DNA of 22,213 bases from a virus, in the UHGV virus genome UHGV-0117651; one strand, given 5' to 3'. The position numbers and the translations under genes are program-made. Below are positions 100 through 14,079 of this stretch, one piece after another. How positions within the stretch are numbered: the stretch's first letter is position 1; every line of letters begins with the position of its first letter. The notes beneath the pieces are model-generated. The model was not told the DNA's origin. It saw only the letters and a list, made by a program, of their open reading frames with translations, and ran no database searches.

Positions 100-2814
100 A
101 TGGGGCAGTTTGGTGACTCCATCCAGCGAACGCAGGGGGCGATCAAAAATCTCGAGCGTCAGGCGCGTTCATTTGAGCGCGCCCGCGACGCTGTCAGTAA
201 AGCGGATGCGGGTATCGTGAAAGCACGACGCCAGCTTAACGCCCTTAATCAGTTACAACGCACGGGTACAGTGCTCAGCGAAAAACAACAAAAGCTGATG
301 CAGCAGTTAAGCAGCCGGCTTGAACGCCTGAATGAATCGCGCACACGGGAAATTCAGAAAATGCGGGAACTTGGCGGAGAGCTGAAACGCCACGGCATTT
401 CCCTGACAGGCAGCGATAACACCATCCAGCAGGCCATCAGACGCACCGAACAGTACAACAACCAGCTTGAACGCGAACGGCAGGCGCTTGCGCGTGTAAC
501 GCGGGCGCGTGAGCGGTATTCGCGCGCGCAGGAAACCGCGGGAAAACTGAAAACAGGTGGTGCGCTGGCAATTGGTGCTGCAGCGGCTGGCGGCTATGCT
601 GCCGGGCGTTTTTTGCAGCCTGCGATCGGGTTCGGCAAAGAGATGTCCCGCGTTCAGGCACTGACGCGAATCGACAAAAACAGCCCGCAGTTTAAGGCGC
701 TGCGTGAGCAGGCGTTAAAACTTGGTTCTGAAACACAGTTTACTGCGAGTGATGCCGCCAGTGGGCAGAGCTTTCTGGCAATGGCTGGTTTTACTCCGCA
801 GGCCATTCAGGCCGCATTGCCCGGTGTTCTTAATATGGCGCTGGCAGGTGGCGTCGAACTCGGCGAGACGGCTGATATAGGCTCCAATATCCTCACACAG
901 TTCAACCTGACAGCCGATCAAATGGACCGGGTTGGCGATACGCTGACAGCAGCATTCACCCGGACCAATACTGATTTACGCGCGCTGGGCGAAACCATGA
1001 AGTATACCGGTCCGGTTGCCGCAAAACTTGGTATCAGTCTTGAAGAAGCGGCGGCCATGGCCGGGATGCTTGCCAATAATGGTCTTCGCGGAAGCGATGC
1101 TGGTACGGCCATGCGCGCAAGTCTGTCCCGCCTTGCATCACCGCCAAAAGCTGCGGCTGATGCACTGAAAGAGCTGGGGGTGTCAGTTGCTGACGCCAGA
1201 GGCAAAATGCGCCCGATGGAGGATGTGCTGCTTGATCTCTATAAGGCGACACAAAAATACGGACAGGTGGACCAGGTCTCCTTCTTCAAGGACATCGCCG
1301 GAGAAGAGGCGTTCGTTGGTTTGCAGACGCTTGTTGCGGCGGCTGGTTCAGGAGAACTGCAAAAACTGACCAGAGAATTGCAGGGGGCAAGGGGAGAGGC
1401 CGATCGCGTTGCAAAAGTAATGGCCGATAATCTTGATGGAGACCTGAAAAATCTCGACAGCGCATGGGAAGGTCTTCGTATTCGCATCAGTGATCTGGTT
1501 GACGGTCCGCTGCGTTCTGTCACGCAGTGGCTCACGCGGGTGCTTGAAAAAATCACCTCGCTGGCGCAGGCCCATCCGGTACTGACGCGCCAGCTACTGA
1601 TAGCAGGCGGTGCGTTGCTGGCAATGACTGCAACGATTGGCTCGTTGTCGCTGGTTATTGGGGTGCTTTACGGGAAGCTGGCCACCTTGCGTCTTACCCG
1701 GTCAATGAATGTCATCAGGGTGTTGCCTGCGCTGTGGGGAATGGTGACGGGTTCTGTTTCTTTGCTGGGAGGAGCTATCGGGGCGCTGTTCAGTCCGGTT
1801 AGTCTTATCGTGGCTGCGCTTGCCGGCGCTGCCGTTCTTATCTGGAAATACTGGGATCCCATCAGGGCATTTTTTGCCGGGGTGTTCAGCGGGATTATGG
1901 AAAGGCTGAACCCGTTGCGTGAAACCTTTGAACGGTTTGGCCCTGTTTTTGACGCAATCGGAAGCGGGATCAGCCAGGTGTTTAACTGGTTTAAATCGCT
2001 GCTGTCACCGATGGAGTCCAGCAAGGAAACGCTGGATAAATGTACCAGTGCTGGCGAGATATTCGGTAACGTTCTTGGTGGCGCGTTACAGCTTGTTCTG
2101 ACGCCTGCAAAAATGTTGCTGGATACGCTGGCGTGGATACTTGAAAAACTCGGTGTTCTTCCGGATGAAGCGGAAAGGGCGAGAAAGAAAATCGAAGACG
2201 CACAGCGTGCGGCCATTCTTCAGGACAAGGTTGCCTTACTTCAAGGGGACCTGGCGAAAATCAATCCGCCGAAGCCTGTGGAAAATGGCAATGGCACCGG
2301 AGGTGATAAACCCAAAGACAACAAACCGCTCACAGACAGCAATACCGGGACGCTACGCAGACTCAGCAAAATTGCTGATAACACAGGTAAGCTGGTTGAG
2401 GAGACGAAAAAACGCATTGGCCCCGGCGATATTGTCTTTAAAAACCTGCCCCGAGCACTTGCTGTTCGTGGGGAGTGGCAGGAGCGGAAGATTGCGCAGG
2501 CCAGTAAGCCTGCCCCCGCAATTAATATCACACCCGTGGTCCCGGCTCCGCTGCCTCCGGCGCTGGTCCCTGCTGTTGCGGCCAGCTCCCGCCCGGTGGC
2601 GGAGGCCATACGATCTCCAGTGGCATCAGTTCCTGTAACTTCCCGTAACCGGGAGCCTGTTGCCTCCGGATTTGGTGGTGAAATTCATGTTCATCTGCAT
2701 AACGTTGTTACACAGAATCCCCGCGAACTGGCGAAACTGGTCGGTGAAATGGTCAGGGCAGAGATGGAACGGCGCGCCCGTGCCGGGCGTGGCAGTTTTT
2801 ACGATAAAGATTGA
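100..2814 (+). CDS. T: Phage tail tape measure protein (P2 gpT-like). The reading frame is open from window position 1, so the true start may lie upstream or overlap an E' frameshift product.
   Basis: 904-aa ORF, Ala/Gly-rich and coiled-coil-like at the N-terminus with a hydrophobic central segment, typical of tape measure proteins. It sits immediately upstream of a gpU homolog. A GGAG ribosome-binding site for the next gene lies at its 3' end. Family assignment is by eye. Confidence 0.8.
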   Translation: MGQFGDSIQRTQGAIKNLERQARSFERARDAVSKADAGIVKARRQLNALNQLQRTGTVLSEKQQKLMQQLSSRLERLNESRTREIQKMRELGGELKRHGISLTGSDNTIQQAIRRTEQYNNQLERERQALARVTRARERYSRAQETAGKLKTGGALAIGAAAAGGYAAGRFLQPAIGFGKEMSRVQALTRIDKNSPQFKALREQALKLGSETQFTASDAASGQSFLAMAGFTPQAIQAALPGVLNMALAGGVELGETADIGSNILTQFNLTADQMDRVGDTLTAAFTRTNTDLRALGETMKYTGPVAAKLGISLEEAAAMAGMLANNGLRGSDAGTAMRASLSRLASPPKAAADALKELGVSVADARGKMRPMEDVLLDLYKATQKYGQVDQVSFFKDIAGEEAFVGLQTLVAAAGSGELQKLTRELQGARGEADRVAKVMADNLDGDLKNLDSAWEGLRIRISDLVDGPLRSVTQWLTRVLEKITSLAQAHPVLTRQLLIAGGALLAMTATIGSLSLVIGVLYGKLATLRLTRSMNVIRVLPALWGMVTGSVSLLGGAIGALFSPVSLIVAALAGAAVLIWKYWDPIRAFFAGVFSGIMERLNPLRETFERFGPVFDAIGSGISQVFNWFKSLLSPMESSKETLDKCTSAGEIFGNVLGGALQLVLTPAKMLLDTLAWILEKLGVLPDEAERARKKIEDAQRAAILQDKVALLQGDLAKINPPKPVENGNGTGGDKPKDNKPLTDSNTGTLRRLSKIADNTGKLVEETKKRIGPGDIVFKNLPRALAVRGEWQERKIAQASKPAPAINITPVVPAPLPPALVPAVAASSRPVAEAIRSPVASVPVTSRNREPVASGFGGEIHVHLHNVVTQNPRELAKLVGEMVRAEMERRARAGRGSFYDKD

Positions 2815-2820
2815 GGAGTC

Positions 2821-3315
2821 ATGGCCATGATGATGATCTATGGCATGTTTGTTTTTGAGCTGCGCACGTTGCCGCATCAGCAGTTACAGCAAAACAAAAG
2901 CTGGCGGCACGTGAAAAATGAACGCGTTAACCGTTCAGCAAGCTGGCAGTATATCGGGGCAGGCGATGATCGCATCGTTCTTTCTGGTGTGCTTTATCCT
3001 GAAATTACAGGTGGCGAAGTGTCGCTTTCGTTGCTGACCTCGCAGGCATATACAGGACGCCCCTGGCCTCTGATTGATGGTGTCGGGCAGATTTACGGCA
3101 TGTATGTCCTGACCGGAACGAATACGACCCGCTCCGAGTTTGATCGCTACGGTAAGGCGAAAAAGATAGAATTTTCACTGACTCTTGAACGCTGTGATGA
3201 GGATTTGCGGGAGCGCCTGCAATCCTCATCGTTCAGTGATATGCTGTCCGGCTTCAAAGATAAGGTCACATCATCCCTTAACAGCGCGGCCAGCTCCGTT
3301 AAAGGGCTGTTTTGA
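2821..3315 (+). CDS. U: Phage tail protein gpU (P2 family)
   Basis: 164-aa ORF starting MAMMMIYGMFVFELRTLPHQ, which resembles the P2 gpU N-terminus as recalled from memory. GGAG lies 7 nt upstream of the ATG. It directly follows the tape measure gene as in P2. Confidence 0.8.
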   Translation: MAMMMIYGMFVFELRTLPHQQLQQNKSWRHVKNERVNRSASWQYIGAGDDRIVLSGVLYPEITGGEVSLSLLTSQAYTGRPWPLIDGVGQIYGMYVLTGTNTTRSEFDRYGKAKKIEFSLTLERCDEDLRERLQSSSFSDMLSGFKDKVTSSLNSAASSVKGLF

Positions 3316-3322
3316 TTAACGC

Positions 3323-3352
3323 AAAACCGCTAATGGTCAGATTAGCGGTTTT
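3323..3352. terminator. Bidirectional intrinsic terminator between gpU (+) and the invertase (-)
   Basis: Perfect 12-bp inverted repeat AAAACCGCTAAT / ATTAGCGGTTTT with a 6-nt loop. A-run on the 5' side and T-run on the 3' side, so it forms a hairpin followed by a U-tract on both strands. Confidence 0.6.
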
Positions 3353-3941
3353 CATTTTCCTGAGTCTGCCTGGTTGTTTCTTCAGCCTGTATATCGCCTA
3401 CAGGGTGATAACGATAAATCGTCGATATGCCGATGTCGTAAATGATCGCCAGTTGTTTCCTGTCATGACCGTTTTTAATCAGCCTCGCTATTTGCTCGTG
3501 TTGTTCTTTTGTCAACTTCGGGCGACGTCCGCCAATGCGTCCTTGTGCGCGTGCTGCTGCCAGCCCGGCCAGTGTACGCTCTACAATTAATTCACGTTCC
3601 ATTTCGGCTAAAGCCCCCATGACGTGAAAAAAGAAACGCCCCATGGGTGTTGATGTGTCAATGCTGTCCGTCAGACTACGGAAATTAACACCTTTTTCCC
3701 GCAATTCCTCAATAAGCGTGATCAGGTGTTTCATACTTCTGCCCAGTCTGTCCAGCTTCCAGACAACCAGCGTATCTCCTTCTGATAGCGTTCTGAGCAG
3801 TTTTTTCAATCCCGGTCTGGCTGATTTCGTTCCGCTGATTTTATCTTCAAAAATCAGTTCACATCCTGCGCAGTTCAGTGCATTGCGTTGTAAATCCGTG
3901 TTCTGGTCATTTGTTGACACACGAATATAGCCAATTTGCAT
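3342..3941 (-). CDS. Site-specific DNA invertase, serine recombinase of the Hin/Gin/Cin/Pin family
   Basis: Translation from the ATG at 3941 gives MQIGYIRVSTNDQNTDLQRNAL...VVWKLDRLGRSMKHLI...GRFFFHVMGALAEMERELIVERTLAGLAAARAQGRIGGRRPKL, with a C-terminal helix-turn-helix. This closely matches the Hin/Gin sequences as I recall them. AGAGGA lies 8 nt upstream of the ATG. The ORF track start at 4136 is an upstream extension. Confidence 0.9.
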   Translation of the reverse strand: MQIGYIRVSTNDQNTDLQRNALNCAGCELIFEDKISGTKSARPGLKKLLRTLSEGDTLVVWKLDRLGRSMKHLITLIEELREKGVNFRSLTDSIDTSTPMGRFFFHVMGALAEMERELIVERTLAGLAAARAQGRIGGRRPKLTKEQHEQIARLIKNGHDRKQLAIIYDIGISTIYRYHPVGDIQAEETTRQTQENENR

Positions 3942-3955
3942 AAAAAACATCCTCT

Positions 3956-4519
3956 TTGTTTCGTGAAAAATACATAGTTGGTATAGGTAGGGATAAAAAC
4001 GAAAACGTTGGTTTGGGGGAAGGTTCTGCGCTGCCTGTTGGTGTGCCCGTTCCGTGGCCCTCAGCAACACCACCAACGGGCTGGCTGAAATGTAACGGCG
4101 CAGCATTTTCTTCTGAAATGTATCCCGGACTGGCAAAGGCTTACCCCACCAATAAATTACCGGATTTACGGGGTGAATTTATTCGTGGCTGGGATGATGG
4201 ACGTAGTGCGGATGCGGGGAGAACAATATTATCCGCTCAAGGTGATGCCATACGTAATATCTATGGTGAGTTCAAGACTGTAAACACTGAAAATTATTCA
4301 ATATGGGAATCAGTAGGCTCGTTTAAGGGGGCAGTGGTGCCTTTAAATTCCTCAACAAACAATAGTTATTTCTCCTTAGTCAGAAGTATGGTGACAGAAA
4401 GGACAGACGGCGCTGTTTACCCAAAAGTGATTGGCCTTGATGCTTCAAAAATTGTTCCAACTGCAAACGAAAACCGCCCACGCAACATTGCGTTTAATTA
4501 CATCGTAAGGGCAGCATGA
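3956..4519 (+). CDS. Tail-fibre C-terminal variable cassette 1 (phage tail-collar domain). No canonical start; the frame is open through the crossover site, as expected for a promoterless segment.
   Basis: Encodes GEGSALPVGVPVPWPSATPPTGWLKCNGAAFSSEMYPGLAKAYPTNKLPDLRGEFIRGWDDGR, which fits the tail-collar motif pattern (P-x-GWL-x-C-x-G, LPDLRG). It ends ...PRNIAFNYIVRAA then stop, a typical fibre terminus. Confidence 0.65.
   Translation: MFREKYIVGIGRDKNENVGLGEGSALPVGVPVPWPSATPPTGWLKCNGAAFSSEMYPGLAKAYPTNKLPDLRGEFIRGWDDGRSADAGRTILSAQGDAIRNIYGEFKTVNTENYSIWESVGSFKGAVVPLNSSTNNSYFSLVRSMVTERTDGAVYPKVIGLDASKIVPTANENRPRNIAFNYIVRAA
3996..4021 (+). other. Candidate invertase crossover site 1 (gix/hix-like), at the 5' edge of cassette 1
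   Basis: AAAACGAAAACG-TT-GGTTTGGGGGAA, with imperfect dyad symmetry AAACG/TT/GGTTT. It resembles the gix sequence as I recall it. The right half and central dinucleotide recur unchanged at 4513-4538 and 5028-5053. Confidence 0.5.
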
Positions 4520-4538
4520 AAACGTTGGTTTGGGGGAA
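4513..4538 (+). other. Candidate invertase crossover site 2
   Basis: GAAAACGTTGGTTTGGGGGAAGG, identical to the site 1 core, placed immediately after the stop codon of cassette 1. Confidence 0.5.
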
Positions 4539-5033
4539 GGTTCTGCGCTGCCTGTTGGTGTGCCCGTTCCATGGCCCTCAGCCACACCACCAACGGGCTG
4601 GCTGAAATGCAATGGTGCAGCATTTTCTTCTGAAATGTACCCCAAACTGGCAAAAGCCTACCCCGCAAATAAATTACCGGATTTACGGGGAGAATTTATT
4701 CGCGGCTGGGATGATGGGCGCGGGGTGGATGCTGGCCGCGCTTTGCTTAATTGGCAGCCACACACAATTTTGGATCATGCACACTATATGGAATTATGGA
4801 CCGGGAACGGACTTGCCGTGGAAAGTGCACGGGAAGGATTAAACCCTGGAATACTGGCTACATACGGGGACGGGGGAATAGTTAAAACAGACGAACCCGG
4901 TTTAAGGGTGCCTTCCTCACTACGAGCCATTAGCTCTCGTAATGTAAAACGGTTTGGTGAAATTAGTGGAAATGTAGGTACAGAAACTCGCCCTCGCAAC
5001 GTTGCATTCAATTACATCGTAAGAGCCGCATGA
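4530..5033 (+). CDS. Tail-fibre C-terminal variable cassette 2 (tail-collar domain)
   Basis: The first ~60 residues are near-identical to cassette 1 and the remainder diverges. It ends ...ETRPRNVAFNYIVRAA then stop. Confidence 0.65.
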   Translation: MGEGSALPVGVPVPWPSATPPTGWLKCNGAAFSSEMYPKLAKAYPANKLPDLRGEFIRGWDDGRGVDAGRALLNWQPHTILDHAHYMELWTGNGLAVESAREGLNPGILATYGDGGIVKTDEPGLRVPSSLRAISSRNVKRFGEISGNVGTETRPRNVAFNYIVRAA

Positions 5034-5053
5034 AAACGTTGGTTTGGGGGAAG
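5028..5053 (+). other. Candidate invertase crossover site 3
   Basis: The same conserved block, immediately after the stop codon of cassette 2. Confidence 0.5.
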
Positions 5054-5604
5054 GCTCTGCACTGCCCGTTGGTGTGCCTGTTCCATGGCCCTCAGCCACA
5101 CCACCAACGGGCTGGCTGAAATGTAACGGTGCAGCATTTTCTTCTGAAATGTATCCCGGACTGGCAAAGGCTTACCCCACAAATAAATTACCGGATTTAC
5201 GCGGAGAATTTATCCGTGGCTGGGATGATGGGCGAGGAATTGATGCGGCACGCGCTTTATTGAGCATTCAAAACGGGATGTTGGAAAAACACCGCCATAT
5301 TGTTGTAGCTAACGATGGATATGACACAAAAGATGAATGGGAGTTGGCTACGATTTTCAAAAAAACATATACACAAGGCAGGGGGCTTGATGCCACAAAT
5401 ACAGGAGGGAGTTTGATTCCATCATCGCCACGACGTCAGGTAACGCTACATCGGTATACAGATAAATTCCCAGACCGAACTGGTTGTTGGTCAGTGCGCC
5501 TGACAGTCGAAACTTACAGCTCAGTCTGCCACCCCGTGTCAGCAGGGAGACTGCGTCATCCACCGGATGCATCAGGGACCAAGTTTTATTGCTCTGCTTG
5601 GTAA
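5044..5604 (+). CDS. Tail-fibre C-terminal variable cassette 3 (tail-collar domain). The 3' end is atypical or degenerate and overlaps the antisense ORF on the - strand.
   Basis: Conserved N-terminal block, then a divergent region that keeps a Q...H-x-H pattern (SIQNGMLEKHRHIVV). It lacks the NYIVRAA terminus of cassettes 1 and 2. Confidence 0.45.
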   Translation: MGEGSALPVGVPVPWPSATPPTGWLKCNGAAFSSEMYPGLAKAYPTNKLPDLRGEFIRGWDDGRGIDAARALLSIQNGMLEKHRHIVVANDGYDTKDEWELATIFKKTYTQGRGLDATNTGGSLIPSSPRRQVTLHRYTDKFPDRTGCWSVRLTVETYSSVCHPVSAGRLRHPPDASGTKFYCSAW

Positions 5605-6560
5605 CCTTAAACACACCATCTTCCAGCGCAACACTGCCGCCGGTGATGGTCCAGCCCTGCGCAGCAGCCTCTCCGGCTGTCGGCAGCAGGGAGACTGTAC
5701 GAACGGATGTGTCACCATCAGACGGCCCCGATGGAGTGTCGCCGCCGGGCGAGGGTTTGATTTCCGGTGCGGTACCGCTGATGAAGGCGCTGGTTCGACC
5801 AACTGCGTTCAGAATAGCGGTTGCCAGGCGATCCGAAATAATGCCCCTGCGCGCCCATGAACTGAAATGTGTCGGACGATTTGACGATACCCAATTACCA
5901 TTACTACGGGATTGCGCGCCGTAATAACCTGCATCAGCAATATCCGGGTCTTCTGCCGGTAAGTTGGTGGGCGTGTTGTTGCCGTTACCGTCGGTCATGA
6001 ACGGCACAAAGAAAACGTTGTCGCTCTCCCTGTTTTTGTACGCGCCGTAGACGGAGTCATACTGTGTGCCGTATGTGTTTTTCCAGTAATACGTCGTGTC
6101 GCCACAAATCCACGGTATAACTGCAGCACTGCCGCCATGGCACTGCGCGTTAAATCCGGAAAGGTCAGTACGGAACTGCTTCAGCATGGCCGTGAACAGG
6201 TCCGGTTGCTGTGCGTAGGTGGCAGCGCTCATGTCAAATTCGCCCTGCATCCAGCACACCGCCAGCAACACATTTTTCGGGTTCTTCTGTAATGCCGCTT
6301 TGGTGCGTGCGATCAGGTCCTGATATAACGGCTTACCCGCACCCCAGCGCGCCGAATCCTGGCTGGCCCCCGTGGTCGTACTGAATGTTCCCTCCGCGCC
6401 CTGAGTGAATGCCGAACCACCACGACAGCATGGTACCAGCAGGATCCCCGCGTTATTCGGGATATACGGGAGTAGTTTTTTGGCAATATGAAGTCCCTGT
6501 CCCACACAGCCGTACTGACCTTTGCTCAGGTCCGCCTTCGGATGATTCAGCGTACTCATA
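5357..6560 (-). CDS. SGNH/SASA-family hydrolase-like protein (sialate O-acetylesterase-like), possibly a receptor-modifying or receptor-binding tail accessory protein. The C-terminal ~80 codons overlap cassette 3 on the other strand, so the true 3' end is uncertain.
   Basis: Translation from the ATG at 6560 begins MSTLNHPKADLSKGQYGCVGQG. Blocks LLVPCCRGGSAF, VCWMQGEFD and THFSSWARRGI resemble the conserved blocks of the sialate O-acetylesterase domain as I recall them, but the expected GQSN serine motif is not obvious. The start ATG overlaps the stop of truncated gpL as ATGA. Confidence 0.45.
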
Positions 6561-6828
6561 CCGGAACATCGGCCAGCGTCTGATGGCCAGCCGCCTGCTG
6601 TTCCTGCTGCCACGCTTCCAGTTCGCGGGTAACGTGAGCCACGGCCCCAGTGGCGGTATGCAGCAGGCGGGAGGTGGTCACGCGGCCCGGCAGTCGTACC
6701 GCCAGACGCAGCTCGCGCAGCACAATATCCGGCCAGAATGCACCTGCTGAAATGCGAGTGTCGCCATCATCGGTATCGGTGATGTCGTCCTCTGCGGGTC
6801 CTGGTTCAGTTCTGGCAACCATACTCAT
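6556..6828 (-). pseudogene. L: Capsid completion protein gpL, N-terminal ~90 codons only (truncated)
   Basis: MSMVARTE...AFWPDIVLRELRLAVRLPGR...EAWQQEQQAAGHQTLADVPV resembles the gpL N-terminus (FFFPDIDPKRVRERMRLEQ...REQKIAAGFTRLADVPADD, recalled from memory). The ORF stops right after LADVPV, where P2 gpL as I recall it continues for ~80 more residues. GGAG lies upstream of the ATG at 6828. Confidence 0.6.
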
Positions 6829-6842
6829 GGAGTTCACTCCTG

Positions 6843-6907
6843 AAAAAAAATCGGGCGGTGGGTGCGCGGTGTAAACGGTCACGGAGTCAAACCGGAACAC
6901 CGCGCAC
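6843..6907 (-). terminator. Hairpin plus U8 tract between gpM and gpL' (possible attenuator or terminator)
   Basis: 10-bp inverted repeat GTGCGCGGTG (6862-6871) / CACCGCGCAC (6898-6907). On the - strand it is followed ~11 nt later by a run of eight T. The spacing is not optimal for a terminator. Confidence 0.3.
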
Positions 6908-6931: not shown

Positions 6932-7732
6932 TTAACCGCGCTTCGCCTTCTGCGACGCGGTGGTTTTTCGTGTTGCAGGCTTCTGCGTTGTCTTTTTACT
7001 TTTGCTGCTTTCGTCCTGCGTCTGCTGTGCGCTGGCGTCTTCTGGTGCGGCTGCGGAATCGGCTTTTTTCAGGGCGCGGGAAAGGGTTGCAATCTCGCGT
7101 TTCACACCTGCGTTCGGGTTCAGGTGCATCGCTTCGCGCAGCAGCTTCAGTGATGAGGCCATGTTGTCTGCATCGGTCAGGCCACGACGGGCAAAGGCAC
7201 ACGCCTTGCATAATTTGGCGCGCACTTCGTCCGGCATGTCCTGGTTGGCGACAATTTCCCAAAGTGTGTCCAGTGGTTCGATAAAGGCGGATAAATCCGC
7301 GTCGGCATCCGTCCCGGCCTGCGTCAGTACCGGGTTGCAGATTTCTTCGGTCAGTACCGTGGCAGCAGTACGGCCAAAGTTATCCGGCATGATGAGGTTG
7401 TGACGGACCACATATGCACCAATACGCAGCGCCAGCGGAAGATCGCCGCAGTCAATCGCCCACACCATCAGCGTGGCAATTACTTCGTCCTGTTGCCCGC
7501 CGTCAGTCTCCAGCGTTCCCTCAATCCAGCCGGAAAAGTCCGGCAACAACTCTTTTTTGATGGCGGCTTTCGCGCTTCTGGCCTGTACGCCCTTTAGCCT
7601 GGCCTGTGCCAGACGCAGACGATACAGCACCTCTTCATGCGCGGTACGCGCGGCGTGGTCCACACCTTCATTCGCCCGGCCTGCGCGCTGTGCCATCACG
7701 TTCTGCCAGTGTTGTTGTGCAGGAGTAATCAT
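6932..7732 (-). CDS. M: Terminase endonuclease (small) subunit gpM
   Basis: 266-aa ORF in the expected position after the major capsid gene. GGAGAG ribosome-binding site. Lys/Thr-rich C-terminal tail. Assigned by synteny and size to the P2 gpM family. Confidence 0.8.
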   Translation of the reverse strand: MITPAQQHWQNVMAQRAGRANEGVDHAARTAHEEVLYRLRLAQARLKGVQARSAKAAIKKELLPDFSGWIEGTLETDGGQQDEVIATLMVWAIDCGDLPLALRIGAYVVRHNLIMPDNFGRTAATVLTEEICNPVLTQAGTDADADLSAFIEPLDTLWEIVANQDMPDEVRAKLCKACAFARRGLTDADNMASSLKLLREAMHLNPNAGVKREIATLSRALKKADSAAAPEDASAQQTQDESSKSKKTTQKPATRKTTASQKAKRG

Positions 7733-7777
7733 TTTTTCTCTCCGTTACAGGCGGGCATGATGCCCGCCGTGAGTTGA

Positions 7778-8830
7778 TTAGCTGTCGGCGAACTTCAGGC
7801 CAGTGATCATCGCGCACTTGCCATAGTCTTCAACGACATAAGCGTCATTGATGGACTGGTAGGTGGCGATGCGGTTGTATTCCGGCTCGTCTTTCATCAG
7901 GCGACGCATTGAACCTTTCTGCCAGTAAATCGACAGGTTGTTGAACGAGGTGATAAGCATCGTTGCATCCGGGAAGAACGGCGCAAGGAACACGCCCAGC
8001 CCGCCAATGGTGCGCGATGACAGGATGAGCTGCCCGGCAAGTAATTCCGCATTGGGATTCTGGCCGCTGATGCTGTTCAGCACGGGCAGACGCAGCGAGT
8101 TAAACAGGTTGCGCCCCATAATCACCGCGAGGTCGTCAGCTTCCTTGTGCCATTCATCCAGCAGGGATGAGCGCGCATCCTGTACCAGAGCATCGGCATT
8201 CGCATACTTACCCGCGTGCGCCACAGTGTTGTCCATGTTGCGGGAGGTCAGCGTCACGTCATTCATTACGCGCTCGCTGGCATCGGTTCTGATGTGCTCC
8301 AGCCAGCCCACGTTAACGTCCTGAAGCAGCTTGTTGGTGTGAAAATCAGACTCGTAGGCGTGGGATGTGCCGTTAAAGCCAATCATGATGCGATCAAGCG
8401 CTACCTGCCGGGCGATCTGTGTACTGATACGGGACTGAAAATCGCTGTGGGCCGCCCAGGTATCAAGCTGTGGGTACGAAATAAAGGTATCGTAGTTCAC
8501 CTGTTCGCACTGGTACTGACGAGACTTCATATCGATCACGTTATTCGGGTTACGGCGTTTGATGCCGTCATAACTGCTATTCGTGCGCGCAATTGGCCCG
8601 GTGGTGTCCAGGAGGATTTTTTCGCCTTTCTGGTCGGTCACGCCGATCACGTTAATTCTTTTCGTAAATTCGGTACTTTCCTTTGAGGCGTTTTCAAAAC
8701 GCTGCTGCACCGCGGGTTCCACGGTAAATCGCGATACCAGTGCAGATACCGGGATATTGTTAAGCGACGCCTGCTGCGCCATATAGCAACCCAGCTTGTT
8801 GCGGGTAATATCTGACATCACCAGATTCAT
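7778..8830 (-). CDS. N: Major capsid protein gpN
   Basis: 350-aa ORF. Several segments (TVEPAVQQ, IMIGFNGTS, VGWLEHIR, VIMGRNLF, MLITSFNNLSIYWQ, YVVEDYG) resemble P2 gpN as I recall it. A hairpin GGCGGGCAT-G-ATGCCCGCC lies between N and M. Confidence 0.85.
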   Translation of the reverse strand: MNLVMSDITRNKLGCYMAQQASLNNIPVSALVSRFTVEPAVQQRFENASKESTEFTKRINVIGVTDQKGEKILLDTTGPIARTNSSYDGIKRRNPNNVIDMKSRQYQCEQVNYDTFISYPQLDTWAAHSDFQSRISTQIARQVALDRIMIGFNGTSHAYESDFHTNKLLQDVNVGWLEHIRTDASERVMNDVTLTSRNMDNTVAHAGKYANADALVQDARSSLLDEWHKEADDLAVIMGRNLFNSLRLPVLNSISGQNPNAELLAGQLILSSRTIGGLGVFLAPFFPDATMLITSFNNLSIYWQKGSMRRLMKDEPEYNRIATYQSINDAYVVEDYGKCAMITGLKFADS

Positions 8831-8853
8831 AAAAAATTTGCTCCTTTGTCTTA

Positions 8854-9690
8854 TCAGAAGTCAGCCAGCTGGTCGGAGGCTGCGCCCGTTGCGGTGAAGC
8901 GGTTCTGCGGATCGCCGTCCTGCGTGCGCAGTTTTTCCTTCAATGCTGCCAGCTCTGTGGTCAGTGACGTGATTTTCTGGCGGTCCTGCTGATGGCGGGT
9001 TTCCAGCACATTAAAACGGTCGATAATGTCGGCCTGTGACGTTGCAACGCCTTCCACCGCTTCCTGAATTCGGGAGAAACTGGCGTCATCCGCTTTGCGT
9101 CCACGACCAATAATCCCCATTACGCGGTTAAACCACTGGGTGCCTTCTTCCTGGCGTTGTTCTGCCATTTCGATGATTTCAGACTCGATGGCTTCGGAGA
9201 TAAGCGGTGCTTCACCCTGGATACTGTTGAACGTCATCACCGCCTGACGTTGCTGTGCCGTGAATTTCAGGCGCTCAGTGCCCAGGCTTGCCGGGGTGTC
9301 GGTCATCGCCAGCCCGACCAGATAGGCGCGCCCGTTAACGGAGAACTGCGGGTGCAGTTCGATACTGGAATAGATTTTCTTGCCGTCAGCGACAAGCTGC
9401 TTCATGCGCTCGGTCGGTTCGATTTCTGCATACAGCGCAGTACGTCCGGCCAGCGGGCCTTCCGTAATATCTTCCGTACTCAGCGCGGTGACATCGCCCA
9501 TTGCGGAAAATTCGCTTGACGGGCATGGCGAGAGATAGTGCTCAACGTTCACGCGGGCAGCGTAAACATCCGGGTTGAAGTTCTCGGCGGCTTCACGCAG
9601 ATGTACCTGGCTGATTTCGCGGCCATCAACAGTTGATCCGGAGACAGCCACGCGAAACTTTTTGCGGGATGTCTTTTTTTCATTAGCCAT
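8854..9690 (-). CDS. O: Capsid scaffolding protein gpO
   Basis: Resembles P2 gpO as recalled (KKFRVAVSGSTVDGREIS, YLVGLAMTDTPASLGTE). The start is chosen at ATG 9690 (MANEKK), which has GAGGGG 9 nt upstream. The ORF track start at 9723 is an in-frame extension. Confidence 0.85.
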   Translation of the reverse strand: MANEKKTSRKKFRVAVSGSTVDGREISQVHLREAAENFNPDVYAARVNVEHYLSPCPSSEFSAMGDVTALSTEDITEGPLAGRTALYAEIEPTERMKQLVADGKKIYSSIELHPQFSVNGRAYLVGLAMTDTPASLGTERLKFTAQQRQAVMTFNSIQGEAPLISEAIESEIIEMAEQRQEEGTQWFNRVMGIIGRGRKADDASFSRIQEAVEGVATSQADIIDRFNVLETRHQQDRQKITSLTTELAALKEKLRTQDGDPQNRFTATGAASDQLADF

Positions 9691-9723
9691 AGTTTTTGCC
9701 CCTCTGACTGGTTCTTCAGTCAT

Positions 9724-9844
9724 GATGGCAAAGCGTAACAGGCTGATACAAAGGGCTTTTGTTGTAAGAAAACGGCCAGAACAGGGGGTTAAGGAGAACG
9801 GTTTCGCGCGCGGGTAATCTTCCTGTAATTACTCAGGGGGAGCA
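9724..9844. promoter_or_regulatory. Divergent late promoter region between gpO (-) and gpP (+)
   Basis: 121-bp intergenic region between divergently transcribed head and terminase genes, equivalent to the P2 late promoters for O and P. It contains TGT...ACA elements (for example TGTAAGAAAACGGCCAGAACA), but the spacing does not clearly match the TGT-N12-ACA activator site recalled for Ogr-type activators. Confidence 0.4.
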
Positions 9845-11596
9845 ATGATTCAGGACGCTTTTGTGCGCCAGCGTGCGCGGCAACTTTACTGGCAGGGTTA
9901 TCCGCCCGCAGAAATATCACGTCTGATGGGAATAAACCCGAACACGATTTATGCGTGGAAAAAACGCGACCAGTGGGATGAAACGCCACCCGTGCAGCGT
10001 GTCACGCAGTCCATCGATGCGCGCCTCATCCAGCTTACTGAAAAACAGAATAAAACAGGCGGTGACTTTAAGGAAATTGACCTGCTGACCCGGCAGCTTA
10101 AAAAAATGCATGATGGCCAGCCGGATGCGACGGCCACAGGAAAGAAAGGCCGGGCGAAAAAACTCAAAAATCATTTCACGCCGGAACAGATTGCCGCACT
10201 GCGGGAAAAAATCATCAGCAGGCTGGAGTGGCATCAGCGGGGCTGGTTTGACTCCCTGACCCTTTGCAGGGAAGCCGGGATACGTAACAGGATGATCCTG
10301 AAATCCCGACAGATTGGCGCGACCTGGTATTTTGCACAGGAAGCACTGCTGATGGCGCTGCGTGACGATGTGGCGCAACCTTACCAGCGTAACCAGATTT
10401 TTTTGTCTGCGTCGCGTCGTCAGGCGTTCCAGTTTAAAAGCATTATTCAGAAGGCTGCGGCTGAAGTTGATGTGGAGCTGAAAGGGGGCGATAAAATCAT
10501 CCTCTCCAACGGCGCAGAGCTGCATTTTCTCGGCACTTCTGCTGCGTCGGCGCAGTCCTATACGGGCAATTTTTATTTTGATGAATTTTTCTGGGTCAGT
10601 CGCTTTGCTGAACTGCGCAAGGTGGCTGGCGCTATGGCAACCCTCAGCGGATTGCGGCGCACCTACTTCTCCACGCCATCCACCGAAACGCACGAAGCAT
10701 ACGCCTACTGGAACGGCGACCGCTGGAACGAGAAAAAGGCCACACATAAACGCCAGCGTTTTTCTGTGGACTGGAAAACACTGCATAACGGGCTTATCTG
10801 CCCTGACCGGACGTGGCGGCAAATTGTCACGCTGGAAGATGTGGTTAATCACGGCTGGAAACACACCGATATCGACGAAATTCGTGATGAAAACACCGAA
10901 GACGAGTTCCTCAATCTCTATATGTGTGAGTTTGTCCGCGAAGGGGAATCGGCATTTAACCTGAATATCCTGATTGGCTGCGGTGTTGACGGATACGACG
11001 ACTGGAAAGACTGGAAACCTTTTGCTCCCCGCCCGATGGGGAATCGTCCGGTATGGATTGGGTATGACGCAAACGGCAGCAGTGGCAACGGCGACAGCGG
11101 CGCTGTGTCCGTGGTGGTTCCTCCGGCTGTTCCTGGTGGCCGTTTTCGAACGGTGGAGACGCGACGCGTTCAGGGGCTGGAGTTTGAAGAACAGGCCAGA
11201 GTCATTGAAGATTTCACGTATCGCTACAACGTGGAACACATCGGCATTGATGTGACGGGCGGGAACGGGGAGGCTGTTTATCAGATAGTGAAACGGTTTT
11301 TCCCTGCCGCTATTCCGTACACCTTCACGCTGTCATCAAAACGGTCGCTTGTACTGAAAATGCTGCAAATAATGCGTGCCGGGCGGTGGGAATACGATCG
11401 CGCCGAACGCGAGCTGGTCGCGGCCTTTAACGCCGTGCGTAAGGTGAAAACACCGGGCGGCTTTATCACTTACGAAACGGACCGCGCGAGGGGGATCAGC
11501 CACGGCGACCTTGCGTGGGCAACCATGCTTGCTGTCATTAACGAACCAATTGGCGGCGAAGGAGAAAACGAGCGTTTCACGGTTATGGAGTTCTGA
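9845..11596 (+). CDS. P: Terminase large (ATPase) subunit gpP
   Basis: 583-aa ORF. Its size and position upstream of the portal gene match the P2 gpP family. Strong GGGGGAG ribosome-binding site. Confidence 0.85.
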   Translation: MIQDAFVRQRARQLYWQGYPPAEISRLMGINPNTIYAWKKRDQWDETPPVQRVTQSIDARLIQLTEKQNKTGGDFKEIDLLTRQLKKMHDGQPDATATGKKGRAKKLKNHFTPEQIAALREKIISRLEWHQRGWFDSLTLCREAGIRNRMILKSRQIGATWYFAQEALLMALRDDVAQPYQRNQIFLSASRRQAFQFKSIIQKAAAEVDVELKGGDKIILSNGAELHFLGTSAASAQSYTGNFYFDEFFWVSRFAELRKVAGAMATLSGLRRTYFSTPSTETHEAYAYWNGDRWNEKKATHKRQRFSVDWKTLHNGLICPDRTWRQIVTLEDVVNHGWKHTDIDEIRDENTEDEFLNLYMCEFVREGESAFNLNILIGCGVDGYDDWKDWKPFAPRPMGNRPVWIGYDANGSSGNGDSGAVSVVVPPAVPGGRFRTVETRRVQGLEFEEQARVIEDFTYRYNVEHIGIDVTGGNGEAVYQIVKRFFPAAIPYTFTLSSKRSLVLKMLQIMRAGRWEYDRAERELVAAFNAVRKVKTPGGFITYETDRARGISHGDLAWATMLAVINEPIGGEGENERFTVMEF

Positions 11597-12642
11597 TGAG
11601 CAGAAAAAATAAAAAAGTGCGCATGAGTTCACGCATTGATCTCGCTGATGCACTCAGGAAAGAATCGTCGCTCAGTGCATTCACTTTTGATGGTCCTTAT
11701 CGCCTGACCGGGCATGATTTGCTGGACAATATGTACTGTGCTGATAACGGGCGGTGGTATGAAACCCCGGTGGACTGGTACGGTCTGGCAAGAGCCGCCC
11801 GGCAAACGTCCTGGCATCAGTCTGCGCTTTACTTTAAGCGCAATGTATTGCTCGGTTGCTACATCCCGCACCCGCTGCTTTCCCGGCAGGATTTCTCGGC
11901 ACTGGCGCTGGACTGGTTTGTGTTCGGTAACGCATTCCTTGAGCTTCGAAGCAATATGCTCGGCGAACCGCTTAAATTACGGCACGCCCTGGCGAAATAC
12001 ATACGACGCGGAAGCGATCTTGAATCATGGTGGTATGTGCAGGATGGCAAGGATGCGTTCCAGTTTCGCCCTGGCAAAGTGTGCCACCTGATGAATCCTG
12101 ACATTAACCAGGAAATCTACGGCATGCCGGAATATCTCGGCGCATTACTCTCGGCCAGCCTGTCTCATTCGGCGGACATGTTCAGAAAACTGTATTACGA
12201 CAACGGATCCCACGCCGGGTGCATCATCTACATCGGTGCAGCGCAGGTAAACCGCGAAAGCATGGACTCTCTGAAAGAAACGCTACAGGGTGCACGTGGT
12301 GGCGGTGCGTTTAAAAACGTGCTCATTCATGCGCCCAACGGGGGCAAAGAGGGGGTGCAAATTTTGCCGTTCCAGCAGATCACCGCAAAGGATGAGTTCA
12401 TGAATGTTAAGGCTGCATCCCGTGATGATGTGCTGGCTGCGCACCGCGTTCCGCCGCAACTAATGGGGGCGATGCCGGGTGAAAAAAGTGCGTTTGGTGA
12501 TGTGGAGAAGGCCGCGCGGGTTTACGCAATTAACGAGCTGATGCCCATCATGGAGGCCATGAAGCACATCAATGACTGGCTTGGCGAAGAGGTGATCCGC
12601 TTTAACCCTTACGCACTGTTAGATACCCAGCTCACATCCTGA
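11596..12642 (+). CDS. Q: Portal (capsid portal vertex) protein gpQ
   Basis: 348-aa ORF whose start overlaps the gpP stop (TGATGA). Size and synteny match P2 gpQ. Confidence 0.85.
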   Translation: MSRKNKKVRMSSRIDLADALRKESSLSAFTFDGPYRLTGHDLLDNMYCADNGRWYETPVDWYGLARAARQTSWHQSALYFKRNVLLGCYIPHPLLSRQDFSALALDWFVFGNAFLELRSNMLGEPLKLRHALAKYIRRGSDLESWWYVQDGKDAFQFRPGKVCHLMNPDINQEIYGMPEYLGALLSASLSHSADMFRKLYYDNGSHAGCIIYIGAAQVNRESMDSLKETLQGARGGGAFKNVLIHAPNGGKEGVQILPFQQITAKDEFMNVKAASRDDVLAAHRVPPQLMGAMPGEKSAFGDVEKAARVYAINELMPIMEAMKHINDWLGEEVIRFNPYALLDTQLTS

Positions 12643-12669
12643 CGCGCTTCGCTTGTCTGCTGCTTCGCC

Positions 12670-12691
12670 GGGGCATAAAAAATTTATGCCC
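12670..12691. repeat. Perfect palindrome GGGGCATAAA-AA-TTTATGCCCC, 28 nt past the gpQ stop (hairpin; possible terminator or part of the cos region)
   Basis: Read directly from the sequence. In P2 the cos site lies about 100 bp beyond the end of Q. Confidence 0.35.
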
Positions 12692-13094
12692 CGACTCTCC
12701 AGCTCCTGTATCAGTCAGATAATTTCACGACGCTTTACAGTATATCGCCACCATCGACGGTCAGACTCTTACGCAATCCCACCGCGTTGACTGCATGTTC
12801 TTCGCCGCCTCAGTGCGATTTTGACGGCCTTACCTTTCACCCCATCAAATCAGAATCCCTCACGTATTTTTCACGCTCAGCGTGAGAAATACAGCCATTC
12901 TGTTGTGTCTCTGCGACATCGTTCAGGGAATGCTATTTACCCCCTGAAACGCGGGCTGTTCCCCCGTCACCTGCGCGTAGAAAAAACGCGTTTTTTGTGC
13001 ACGTACGGATCCTTGACGGATCCAGCCGCCACGCGGGCCGGAAGTACAAAAAGTCGTTCAAAAAAATTGTGCAAACTTGTGCACTATCGTGCAA

Positions 13095-13121
13095 ACAAAA
13101 AAAAGCGCCTTATCGGCGCTT
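13095..13121 (-). terminator. Intrinsic terminator for the small - strand ORF
   Basis: AAGCGCC-TTATC-GGCGCTT stem-loop. On the - strand it is followed by a run of eight T. It lies 9 nt after the stop of ORF 13130-13399. Confidence 0.6.
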
Positions 13122-13129
13122 CAAAAATA

Positions 13130-13399
13130 TCAATTGTTGCTGTGTATTAATCGCCAACCACGAACATATGCTTCATAGGCATCTCTGTGCCTTACAGTTC
13201 CAGCCTGGCTAAACGGAATGTTAGCTAAAACTAAATCATTCTGAGCCATAGCGCGTCCTTCAAGCGCATCTTTTATGCCTAGCTCAAAAGCACAGGCAGC
13301 GCATTTGTGCCGACCTTCTTGTCCTTGATATTCAGGGAGAGACAGAAATGTTGGGTTATAACGATGAGGGTTCTTGCAAATACCTGTTTTAGCCCGCAC
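13130..13399 (-). CDS. Hypothetical small protein (89 aa, GTG start)
   Basis: GAGG lies 8 nt upstream of the GTG at 13399 and a strong terminator lies just after the stop. No recognisable family. Contains Cys at C8, C33 and C36. Confidence 0.4.
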   Translation of the reverse strand: MRAKTGICKNPHRYNPTFLSLPEYQGQEGRHKCAACAFELGIKDALEGRAMAQNDLVLANIPFSQAGTVRHRDAYEAYVRGWRLIHSNN

Positions 13400-13420
13400 T
13401 TTATTTACCTCATAGGAAAA

Positions 13421-13501
13421 ATATGCGTGCCTTTACAGAGGTGCGTGTAAGCAATAAAATATACGACGCACATTTTGATTTACTTCGGAAGGCACGCATA
13501 T
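13421..13501. repeat. 13-bp perfect inverted repeat ATATGCGTGCCTT / AAGGCACGCATAT with a 55-bp spacer
   Basis: Read directly from the sequence. It lies just upstream (in - strand terms) of the ribosome-binding site of the small ORF. The spacer holds a second imperfect dyad, GTGCGTG...ACGACGCAC. Confidence 0.45.
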
Positions 13502-13530
13502 CAGGTTAAGTGAGTCCGACCGAGTTTTAC

Positions 13531-13563
13531 GCCCCAATAGTTGCTGCTATTGGGGCGTTTTGC
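13531..13563 (+). terminator. Intrinsic terminator on the + strand (GCCCCAATAG-TTGCTG-CTATTGGGGC, then GTTTTGC)
   Basis: Perfect 10-bp stem with a 6-nt loop and a T-tract on the + strand only. No + strand coding gene ends here, so it may terminate a small noncoding transcript. Confidence 0.45.
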
Positions 13564-13763
13564 ATGGACAATGCCGCGCAATTATCTTGTCGCTCACAAT
13601 GCGAACGATCTTACAAAAAGGCACATTACTGTCAAGATAATTGATCGTTTTAATCGATAGATAATAGACAATCTATTTGTTTAACAGATCGATTATTGAA
13701 GTAAGTGTGCCAAATGGAATGATACTGTTTCTATAAATGTGAGCATTTTTCGCGCAGATGCTT

Positions 13764-14075
13764 TTACTCAGGAAATAACGCCCGGATATTCCCAGCCATC
13801 TGGCTGGTTATCTTAGCCACTGGTGCAGACTGTGCTTCAAACTTTTTTGAGCTGATTTGTGTCACAGGTAAAATCTCATCATCAGCCCATGCGGTCAGTC
13901 GGTAAGCCTCTGCCGGATTCGTCTTCAGAAGTGCCAGCCCGGCCAGAAAAGCCACGCGTTGGCCGCTTTTGCGGGCTTCTGGTGTAAGGCTGTCCAGCCA
14001 GGCGCATGCTTCTCCTTCGTTCTTGACGGCAGCTGGCTTCAGATAGAAACTTATTCTTCTGGTTGGTGTCGTCAT
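13764..14075 (-). CDS. parR: Plasmid partition adaptor ParR (StbB-like)
   Basis: 103-aa ORF immediately after parM with a 4-nt gap. Its N-terminal region (ISFYLKPA...LDSLTPEARKSGQRVAFLAGLALL) resembles R1 ParR as I recall it. Confidence 0.7.
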   Translation of the reverse strand: MTTPTRRISFYLKPAAVKNEGEACAWLDSLTPEARKSGQRVAFLAGLALLKTNPAEAYRLTAWADDEILPVTQISSKKFEAQSAPVAKITSQMAGNIRALFPE

Positions 14076-14079
14076 TGGT

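Follow-up and report, generated by a model that had tools for sequence, protein, structure and literature searches.

A DNA invertase gene beside a row of promoterless tail-fibre cassettes that all face the same way raises the question of whether such an array can still exchange its cassettes. The window analyzed here (the whole stretch of 22,213 nt from the UHGV virus genome UHGV-0117651) comprises the first 22 kb of ENA contig ERZ651857 NODE_2_length_310255_cov_4.83 and represents a P88-like (Xuanwuvirus, P2-family) Escherichia coli prophage, which is 99–100% identical to the prophage of strain AR_0013. With a probability of about 0.9, the locus is a known Min-like multi-inversion system that has been frozen by deletion. 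The prophage is defective, having lost fibre, baseplate and lysis genes by deletion, and the features on which this reading is based are listed in Table 1. A flip of genes T and U by the invertase, relative to the P2 order, was considered and rejected, as T-U-invertase is the native order in P88-like phages.

Table 1. Features of the invertase locus and its surroundings (positions are those of the window)
Feature	Position	Strand	Basis or remark
Tape-measure gene (T) and gpU	100–3315	+	Precede the invertase as in P88-like phages; gene order in P88
Terminator-like hairpin with T-run, between gpU and invertase 3' end	3323–3352		Consensus scan only; not evidence of function
Intact Din-family (Gin/Hin/Cin/Pin/Min-type) serine DNA invertase, 199 aa	3342–3941	-	Pfam, PDB and PHROG matches
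Crossover site 1, AAAACGAAAACG-TT-GGTTTGGGGGAA	3996–4021	+	Fixed invertase-proximal end of invertible region; homologous to E2348/69 endpoint 1893703
Silent cassette 1 (type A, 172 codons from site to stop; collar domain and variable tip)	4001–4519	+	Pfam Collar 2.3e-14; PHROG 523 5e-75
Crossover site 2, AGCATGAAAACG-TT-GGTTTGGGGGAA	4513–4538	+	Cassette 1 stop codon within left half
Silent cassette 2 (type B, 171 codons)	4518–5033	+	Pfam Collar 4e-14
Crossover site 3, CGCATGAAAACG-TT-GGTTTGGGGGAA	5027–5052	+	Sequence match to sites 1 and 2
Cassette 3 (type C), truncated, 393 of ~489 nt left	5032–5424	+	100% identical to AR_0013 L005 8202–8594, homology ending there
Deletion junction 1, 3-bp overlap TCA	5422–5424		6,182 bp lost relative to AR_0013
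Internal fragment of DUF6645/SASA-family esterase gene	5425–6560	-	Pfam SASA; 99.7% identical to AR_0013
Deletion junction 2, ~0–2 bp overlap	6560–6561		2,083 bp lost relative to AR_0013
Head-completion gene L, 5' part, truncated	6561–6900	-	Pfam Phage_GPL, profile positions 1–64 of 139 only

Invertase and tail-fibre cassettes

The invertase gene lies head-to-head with the three plus-strand cassettes, and its product has the features of a small serine recombinase, namely a resolvase catalytic domain with a VSTNDQ motif and Ser9, followed by a C-terminal HTH. Matches to Pfam Resolvase (1.5e-51) and HTH_7 (1.4e-12), to PHROG 125 'DNA invertase' (1e-98) and to the Mu Gin structures 4M6F and 3UJ3 (3e-91, with 4M6F at 3.3e-91; residues 1–185 aligned) agree with the Hin/Gin/Pin-family assignment given in the initial annotation. 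The protein is 100% identical to WP_001165544.1 of intact prophages and differs by one amino acid from the enzyme of EPEC strain E2348/69; the whole genes differ by 1 nt, and 678 of 680 nt are identical over positions 3342–4021, which cover the gene, the intergenic region and site 1. Since the gene is intact and identical to that of working relatives, the enzyme activity has probably not been lost. A Fis-bound recombinational enhancer in cis usually sits in the 5' part of the invertase gene. Our scan returned no pair of Fis-like 15-mers 48 bp apart; any enhancer present in E2348/69 should nevertheless also be present in the window, because the two invertase genes are nearly identical and E2348/69 inverts.

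All three cassettes match Pfam Collar (PF07484; 2.3e-14, 4e-14 and 3.4e-14, ~53 bits against a cut-off of 24) as well as PHROG 523 'tail collar fiber protein' (e-59 to e-75), in the latter case only near the C-terminus, at positions 477–638 of 673 for cassettes 1 and 2 and 477–595 for the truncated cassette 3, which supports their earlier description as tail-fibre or tail-collar C-termini. They also open with a shared block, as had been noted, although this block spans ~210–220 nt rather than ~150 bp; 198–199 of 220 positions are identical between cassettes, and identity then drops to chance. In addition, ~45 nt at the cassette 3' ends are conserved, and cassette 3 is without the conserved ...RPRNIAFNYIVRAA end. 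The third cassette had been drawn to 5604, but it is genuine only to 5424, and beyond that point the ORF 5044–5604 runs on into a fragment of an unrelated esterase gene, read on its reverse strand. A scan gave 2 promoter-like sites against 3.1 expected. As in Min-type systems, there are more than two crossover sites, each of them (three of three) lying at the 5' end of a promoterless tail-fibre 3' cassette.

Crossover sites and the search for an inverted partner

A hix/gix-like 26-mer stands at the start of every cassette, at 3996, 4513 and 5027. The three sites have the form xxxxxGAAAACG-TT-GGTTTGGGGGAA, in which a 2-bp core separates two 12-bp halves of imperfect symmetry. There are exactly three copies of the 21-mer GAAAACGTTGGTTTGGGGGAA (4001, 4518 and 5032), all on the plus strand, and none in shuffled sequences; a repeat finder likewise gave three copies, with spacings of 517 and 514 nt. 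The TGA stops of cassettes 1 and 2 (4517–4519 and 5031–5033) run two bases into the site that follows. Both the direct orientation of these gix/hix-like sites and the position of sites 2 and 3 at the preceding stop codon had been recognized in the initial annotation.

No inverted 21-mer is found on the minus strand of the whole window at up to three mismatches, and the proposed search with 26-mers on both strands (three family-specific 26-mers at up to 8 mismatches of 26, and a generic Din palindrome) gave nothing beyond the three plus-strand sites in the prophage. An inverted site pair on the same replicon, a feature of the Din family, is therefore missing from the window, whereas it is present in 7 of 7 intact relatives. 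Because no inverted partner was found, the prophage corresponds to the frozen relic that had been envisaged as one outcome.

This search covered the prophage and ~22 kb, and a compatible inverted site could lie in another resident prophage or in a P1-like plasmid. The array might then still be a working reservoir, if the invertase recombined its sites with an inverted one at a different chromosomal location, such as a second P2-like prophage. The intact invertase, 100% identical to that of functional relatives, would suit such a role, as would the frequency of the module in E. coli: the invertase plus site at ≥95% identity was found in 172 records from complete E. coli assemblies, at up to 5 places per genome and at 187 places on plasmids, and in E2348/69 three prophage loci with similar sites can invert. 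However, the prophage itself holds no partner, and wild-type enzymes of the Hin class need a Fis-bound enhancer, which in Salmonella is ~100 bp away from one hix site; they are confined to inversion between sites on one molecule, a limit that hyperactive mutants alone overcome. Moreover, inversion between distant sites would flip large chromosome segments, and nothing here shows it. We consider a working reservoir very improbable.

Intact relatives and cassette exchange

In P88 and the E. coli prophages examined, the gene order is T-U-invertase (minus)-silent cassettes (plus)-[tail-fibre assembly gene, H, I, J, W, V...] (minus). Intact relatives possess 1–5 silent cassettes, and their constant tail-fibre gene H ends in a partner site of inverted orientation, which is consistent with the initial view of the three direct sites as a Min/shufflon-like multi-cassette reservoir. 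The H-junction site is TTCTTGATTACC-TT-GGTTTGGGGGAA, and it lies on the strand opposite to the invertase-proximal site in 7 of 7 intact P88-type E. coli prophages examined; the internal sites of these relatives lie on either strand. The H-junction site presumably resembles hixL.

Cassettes are exchanged among the relatives, in which the constant H is present as ...DYLGLGEGS... fusions. Type A holds the first position in HD12481, 2014C-3075 and ETEC6335, and type B is on the opposite strand in O55:H7 CB9615. Type C is silent (plus strand) in AR_0013, HD12481, 160-11H1 and the window, but ETEC6335 carries it fused to H. For types E, D and F, too, strains differ in whether the cassette is silent or expressed, and the tail-fibre assembly gene flips along.

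Inversion at these sites has been reported for the P2-like prophage 'shufflon' of EPEC E2348/69 (Goldberg et al. 2014, Genome Med 6:112, PMC4272514, Table S1), at NC_011601.1 1891695–1893703 and 1892127–1893703 and with four coexisting variants. In our analysis of this record, the sites were placed at 1893703, 1892127 and 1891688, and the published endpoints thus coincide with the homologues of the window sites. The E2348/69 prophage has the same sites, cassette types C, E and F, and the order T-U-invertase-cassettes. While the window has three plus-strand sites, E2348/69 keeps H with the inverted site and one more minus-strand site, and the retention of these elements explains why it inverts (four variants, three alternative C-termini).

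Deletion junctions

At junction 1, homology to the AR_0013 locus (L005) jumps from 8594 to 14777. The constant 5' fibre gene ending in a site, another Min-type feature, has thereby been deleted. The segment that was lost carried the remainder of cassette C, followed by the tail-fibre assembly gene, H (including the inverted site), I, J, W, V, S, R and the 3' end of the esterase gene. Junction 2 removed the esterase 5' end, LysB/LysC, endolysin, holin, X and the 3' part of L. To either side of both junctions, the window shows 99.3–100% identity to AR_0013. The suggestion that the locus diversifies host range or adsorption specificity is unsupported here, since H, the inverted site and the assembly, baseplate and lysis genes are deleted. 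The esterase was also considered as a part of the fibre locus and rejected, as intact relatives carry it as a cargo gene of its own, placed between the lysis genes and the tail genes and next to gene R on the tail side.

A direct-repeat array with an odd right boundary could also arise as a metagenome assembly artefact, by repeat collapse or chimeric joins in a 4.8x contig. The contig coverage is indeed 4.83 (NODE_2) with the window at its start, the first 99 nt are chimeric, and cassette repeats of ~90% identity are hard to assemble. However, both junctions recur on 10 or more contigs, which come from 6 or more samples and were produced by different assemblers (SPAdes NODE, k119 contig, scaffold and Logan), and both are therefore real. 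These contigs were found through a junction-specific protein, a 400-aa chimeric ORF, which they have in identical form. The junction overlaps (3 bp and ~0–2 bp) are not k-mer sized. The order A-B-C with identical site contexts is shared by the window and L014, another carrier of the deletions, L013 and L017 have A-E-B-C, and the complete genome of HD12481 has A-B-D-C on one strand. An artefact is hardly credible in view of these data. The exact 34-mer of junction 1 had no match in GTDB representative genomes, IMG/VR viral contigs or JGI metagenome contigs, and when positions 5300–6700 were compared by BLAST with 5,426 complete E. coli genomes, the internal esterase part (5422–6570) was all that matched. 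Junction 1 as an invertase product at a pseudo-site was rejected, as the parental sequences share only TCA and are unlike the site.

Decay of these prophages is ongoing, with further gene and cassette loss among carriers of both deletions. L013, a 21-kb locus reaching the other prophage end, is also without the M and N genes, and its four sites are all on one strand, with no inverted site in the locus. A fourth cassette (E), which the window has lost, is retained in both L013 and L017. Such differences might suggest that the invertase actively trims the array by resolving direct sites, making site-specific deletion its present activity: exactly this one cassette (439 bp; found in L013 and L017 but not in the window or L014) distinguishes carriers that share both deletions, and the crossover falls within 49 bp of identical sequence (window 4487–4535) that include the 26-bp site. 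However, the same 49-bp stretch is the longest perfect repeat identity, and the loss is accounted for just as well by RecA-dependent recombination or by replication slippage. Moreover, wild-type Hin-class invertases are limited to inversion, near-equal rates of deletion and inversion having been reported only for the Fis-independent mutant Hin-H107Y. Trimming by the invertase is thus distinctly unlikely.

State of the switch

In the intact switch, H is on the opposite strand and has a 26-bp site at its end, the silent cassettes start at ...GAAAACG-TT-GGTTTGGGGGAA, and the invertase recombines the H site with any oppositely oriented cassette site. The DNA between the two sites then flips, and the cassette concerned is fused in frame to H (...DYLGLGEGS...). 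Same-orientation silent cassettes beside the invertase are therefore a normal isomer. In the window, an illegitimate deletion at 5422–5424 took the distal part of the invertible region together with H, the H site and the baseplate genes, and a second one at ~6560 took the lysis genes. This leaves the intact invertase gene, two complete cassettes, a truncated one and three direct sites, a switch that would no longer express or exchange its cassettes and in which the only further change would be cassette loss between direct repeats.

We infer that the array is inactive at present. As the deletion removed the fibre gene into which the cassettes plug, the locus can be regarded as an ordinary relic. 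A more speculative idea is that the dead prophage keeps a live recombination module, whose invertase acts on direct repeats or serves other invertible segments in trans and whose silent cassettes are recaptured by incoming phages; we consider this unlikely. For annotation, promoterless fibre cassettes in one orientation beside an invertase should be read as a normal isomer with its partner at the fibre-gene end, 2–4 kb away, and the module as a relic where the constant fibre gene is deleted, as here.

Comparison with known inversion systems

Multi-cassette tail-fibre switches with Din-family invertases are well known, Min of p15B being the textbook case, and for the very switch described here, inversion has been shown in the P2-like prophage of E2348/69. 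The Min multiple-inversion system of plasmid p15B and P1-like phage-plasmids was reportedly described by Iida in 1990 and by Sandmeier, Iida and Arber in 1992, work to which PMC6906374 and PMC11850598 refer. By its description, it resembles the present locus in having a Din-family invertase beside a series of tail-fibre 3' cassettes, all of which begin at a crossover site. In P1-like plasmids, the invertase is identical to that of the window at 177 of 190 positions, the cassettes, including type B, and sites are ~90% identical at the nucleotide level, and an H/S-type junction site is TTCTTGATTACC-TT-GGTTTAGGGGAA. In contrast, the backbone of these elements is that of a P1-like plasmid prophage rather than an integrated P2-like one, and Min has sites in both orientations, which the window does not. 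The silent cassettes were also seen to share sites and ~90% identity with other P2-like phages in addition to P1-like phage-plasmids.

Gin/G of Mu, Cin/C of P1, Pin/P of e14 and Hin/H of Salmonella use the same recombinase class (Gin 3e-91), and these classical systems have 26-bp sites with a 2-bp core and an invertase divergent from the adjacent silent fibre cassette, as in the window. The Mu-type repeat for EPEC, AAACCTTGGTTTGGGAGAA, differs from the window site at 2 of 19 positions. However, classical systems contain two sites and one invertible segment, and each fibre tip of Mu and P1 has its own assembly gene, whereas the window and its relatives carry many single-gene collar cassettes, of which only type F travels with the tail-fibre assembly gene. 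In the R64 shufflon (Rci), multiple inversions likewise select the C-terminal ends of one adhesin-like protein, but Rci is a tyrosine recombinase acting at sfx sites on the PilV pilus adhesin and has no homology to the present system.

The first 99 nt of the window are a chimeric tip from Ruthenibacterium lactatiformans, joined via a shared 22-mer. Such chimeric tips can occur at the ends of metagenome contigs, and the window is an example.

Invertase and Tail-Collar Cassettes

P2-family genes lie on both sides of the locus (left, tape measure and gpU; right, L, M, N, O, P, Q and gpA), and the order T, U, invertase (−), silent fibre cassette (+) is native to P88-like phages (Xuanwuvirus), in which the minus strand after the cassette carries a tail-fibre assembly gene, H, I, J, W, V, S, R, the lysis genes, X and L. 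Among complete genomes, the closest relative of the window is a prophage in E. coli AR_0013 (identity 99.3–100%). That prophage, otherwise 'intact', is probably also defective, since its portal gene (L006, 11835–12881) has an internal stop.

The initial annotation assigned the invertase to its family correctly: residues 1–185, including the VSTNDQ active-site motif, align to the Mu Gin crystal-structure sequence 4M6F (3.3e-91). The module of invertase and site 1 (3342–4021) was found among complete E. coli assemblies in 100 records at ≥99% identity and 172 at ≥95%, and P1-like plasmids carry it at about 90% identity. Three same-orientation tail-collar cassettes beside the invertase were likewise borne out. 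The plus strand holds three open frames in succession, all matching Pfam Collar (2–4e-14), with the same block at each start; the 21-mer GAAAACGTTGGTTTGGGGGAA occurs in exactly three copies, at 4001, 4518 and 5032, all on the + strand (none in shuffled sequences), and a repeat finder returned three copies 517 and 514 nt apart. The common 5' block, proposed to span some 150 bp, measures about 210–220 nt (198–199 of 220 positions identical). A second conserved stretch, of about 45 nt, lies at the 3' end and encodes ...RPRN(I/V)AFNYIVRAA. As had been noticed, the site that follows cassette 1 and the one that follows cassette 2 each share their first two bases with the preceding stop codon (4517–4519 and 5031–5033). 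In PHROG 523 'tail collar fiber protein' (673 positions), cassettes 1 and 2 match 477–638 and the truncated cassette 3 matches 477–595; the cassettes are 3' ends of genes rather than whole genes. Promoter-like sites are not above chance (2 found vs. 3.1 expected).

Features of the inversion locus and its deletions in the window
Feature	Position	Strand	Details
DNA invertase ORF	3342–3941	−	199 aa; Pfam Resolvase 1.5e-51, HTH_7 1.4e-12; PHROG 125 'DNA invertase' 1e-98
ORF in cassette 3 frame	5044–5604	+	chimeric past 5424
Junction 1			3-bp overlap (TCA); 6,182 bp lost vs. AR_0013 (homology comparison)
Esterase fragment	5425–6560	−	internal, 1.1 kb; all that is left of the gene
Junction 2	~6560/6561		~0–2 bp overlap; 2,083 bp removed

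Organization of the Switch in Intact Relatives

Sites were mapped in seven intact relatives: HD12481, AR_0013, 2014C-3075, ETEC6335, 160-11H1, O55:H7 CB9615 and E2348/69. All seven have the invertase-proximal site GATAAAAACGAAAACG-TT-GGTTTGGGGGAA on the + strand, where the first of one to five + strand cassettes lies, together with zero to two minus-strand cassettes and, within the constant fibre gene H, a minus-strand site TTCTTGATTACC-TT-GGTTTRGGRGAA (7/7; frame ...DYLGLGEGS...). Across the site the cassette frame reads ENVGLGEGS, and exchange at the TT core therefore yields an in-frame fusion. The cassettes were sorted by their variable parts into types A to H. Type C is found in three states: fused to H (ETEC6335), silent with minus-strand orientation (CB9615 and E2348/69), and silent with + orientation (the window, AR_0013, HD12481 and 160-11H1). 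Types D, E and F vary between strains in the same manner. The tail-fibre assembly gene always follows type F, and both orientations occur. ETEC6335 carries five + cassettes in tandem with the H site alone on the opposite strand, so a tandem same-orientation array is an ordinary isomer. For the lineage, with its one to five + cassettes, the proposed multi-cassette reservoir is the right description.

Type F (…ILSMQGWLTGSHYHN…) is the only one of types A to H with the assembly gene behind it (L003, L005 and L007–L011, loci of intact relatives), and this gene is directed away from H whenever a non-F cassette is expressed, which suggests that most collar tips fold without the tail-fibre assembly chaperone. 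Several complete genomes (L003, 13351–14916; L007, 10409–11773; L010, 9939–11294) have the expressed fusion of H and cassette annotated in pieces or as a pseudogene; 2014C-3075 has a frameshift there and CB9615 a short frame. Silent cassettes appear in RefSeq as 'phage tail protein', at times 'incomplete', inconsistently across loci.

This kind of system, essentially this very one, is already described and shown to work. In the P2-like prophage locus of EPEC E2348/69, three inverted repeats are present and two inversions, ~2.2 and ~1.8 kb long, overlap; four variants coexisted, and the fibre protein had three alternative C-termini (Goldberg et al. 2014, PMC4272514). The inversion coordinates in NC_011601.1 are 1891695–1893703 and 1892127–1893703 (PMC4272514, Table S1), and the sites mapped here in the same record fall at 1893703, 1892127 and 1891688. 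The E2348/69 invertase differs from that of the window by one residue, and 678 of the 680 positions of 3342–4021 are identical.

Loss of the Inverted Site

Homology of cassette C to AR_0013 runs at 100% identity to 5424, past which the window continues inside a DUF6645/SASA esterase gene that has the opposite orientation. The third cassette, first drawn to 5604, is therefore real up to that point and chimeric with the esterase gene beyond it. Judged from AR_0013, junction 1 removed the end of cassette C, the tail-fibre assembly gene, H with its inverted site, I, J, W, V, S, R and the esterase 3' end; junction 2 removed the esterase 5' end, LysB/LysC, endolysin, holin, X and the 3' part of L. 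None of 5,426 complete E. coli genomes carries either junction. An assembly artefact is the least probable alternative, to which we give hardly any weight: a 400-aa ORF across both junctions is shared by at least 10 contigs (two of them 310 and 387 kb) from at least six samples and different assemblers, which shows the deletions to be real and inherited.

A partner site elsewhere in the genome is slightly more probable, yet still very unlikely; a search that allowed up to 8 mismatches in 26 turned up no inverted site in the window, and none is present in L013, a contig with both deletions that reaches the prophage's other end. The locus, with its three sites in direct orientation and none inverted, is most likely inactive (probability about 0.9), an intact invertase gene with two complete silent tips and one truncated one in a prophage past tail building or lysis. 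The diversifying role first suggested is unsupported for this copy, H and the inverted site being deleted; the copy corresponds to the 'frozen relic' that the initial annotation had named as the opposite outcome.

Further Decay and Variable Cargo

Both junctions occur with four cassettes (A, E, B, C') in L013 and L017, and with three (A, B, C') in the window and the related contig L014. Cassette E (439 bp) was lost inside a perfectly identical 49-bp stretch that includes the site (window 4487–4535), which fits homologous recombination or rare site-specific deletion equally. Trimming of the array by the invertase, the foremost of the three alternatives, is nevertheless improbable. Hin-class invertases need a Fis-bound enhancer for the wild-type reaction, and the Fis-independent mutant H107Y is the only one for which hix sites in direct orientation are reported to undergo efficient deletion (PMC4817059). 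L013 (ERZ28649915) is also without the terminase small subunit gene M and the capsid gene N (cf. window 6939–8746); its tape-measure gene is complete (935 aa), preceded by sheath, tube, D and ogr genes. In L015 (ERR10436367), another carrier of both deletions, a 542-bp piece inside the scaffold gene O is inverted (cf. window 8771–9312), which could be real or an assembly error.

The window corresponds to the opening 22 kb of ENA contig ERZ651857 NODE_2_length_310255; the 16,559 nt available for comparison are 100% identical. Positions 1–99, found in no E. coli genome, match the 3' end of a Ruthenibacterium lactatiformans (Clostridia) transketolase-family gene at 100% identity; the 22-mer GCCGAAAACGCCCGCCGCCTG (78–99) is shared by this piece and the phage tape-measure gene, joined in frame. 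Since the window begins at base 1 of a metagenome contig, these 99 nt are a chimeric assembly tip, not biology.

A 625-aa DUF6645/SASA (NanS-p-like) carbohydrate esterase is encoded as cargo between the lysis genes and tail gene R of P88-like prophages (L004, 8669–10546; L006, 19601–21481). The 3' part of its gene shares ~85–90% identity with esterase genes from Stx and lambdoid phages. A variable slot for cargo, bounded by portal gene Q and replication gene A in this integrated P2-like prophage, holds a ParM/StbA actin-like segregation gene and a Plasmid_stab_B (ParR-like) gene in the window (13764–15039, −) and a Dam methylase and AAA ATPase in AR_0013; the pC-Ec2-KPC copy likewise carries ParM.
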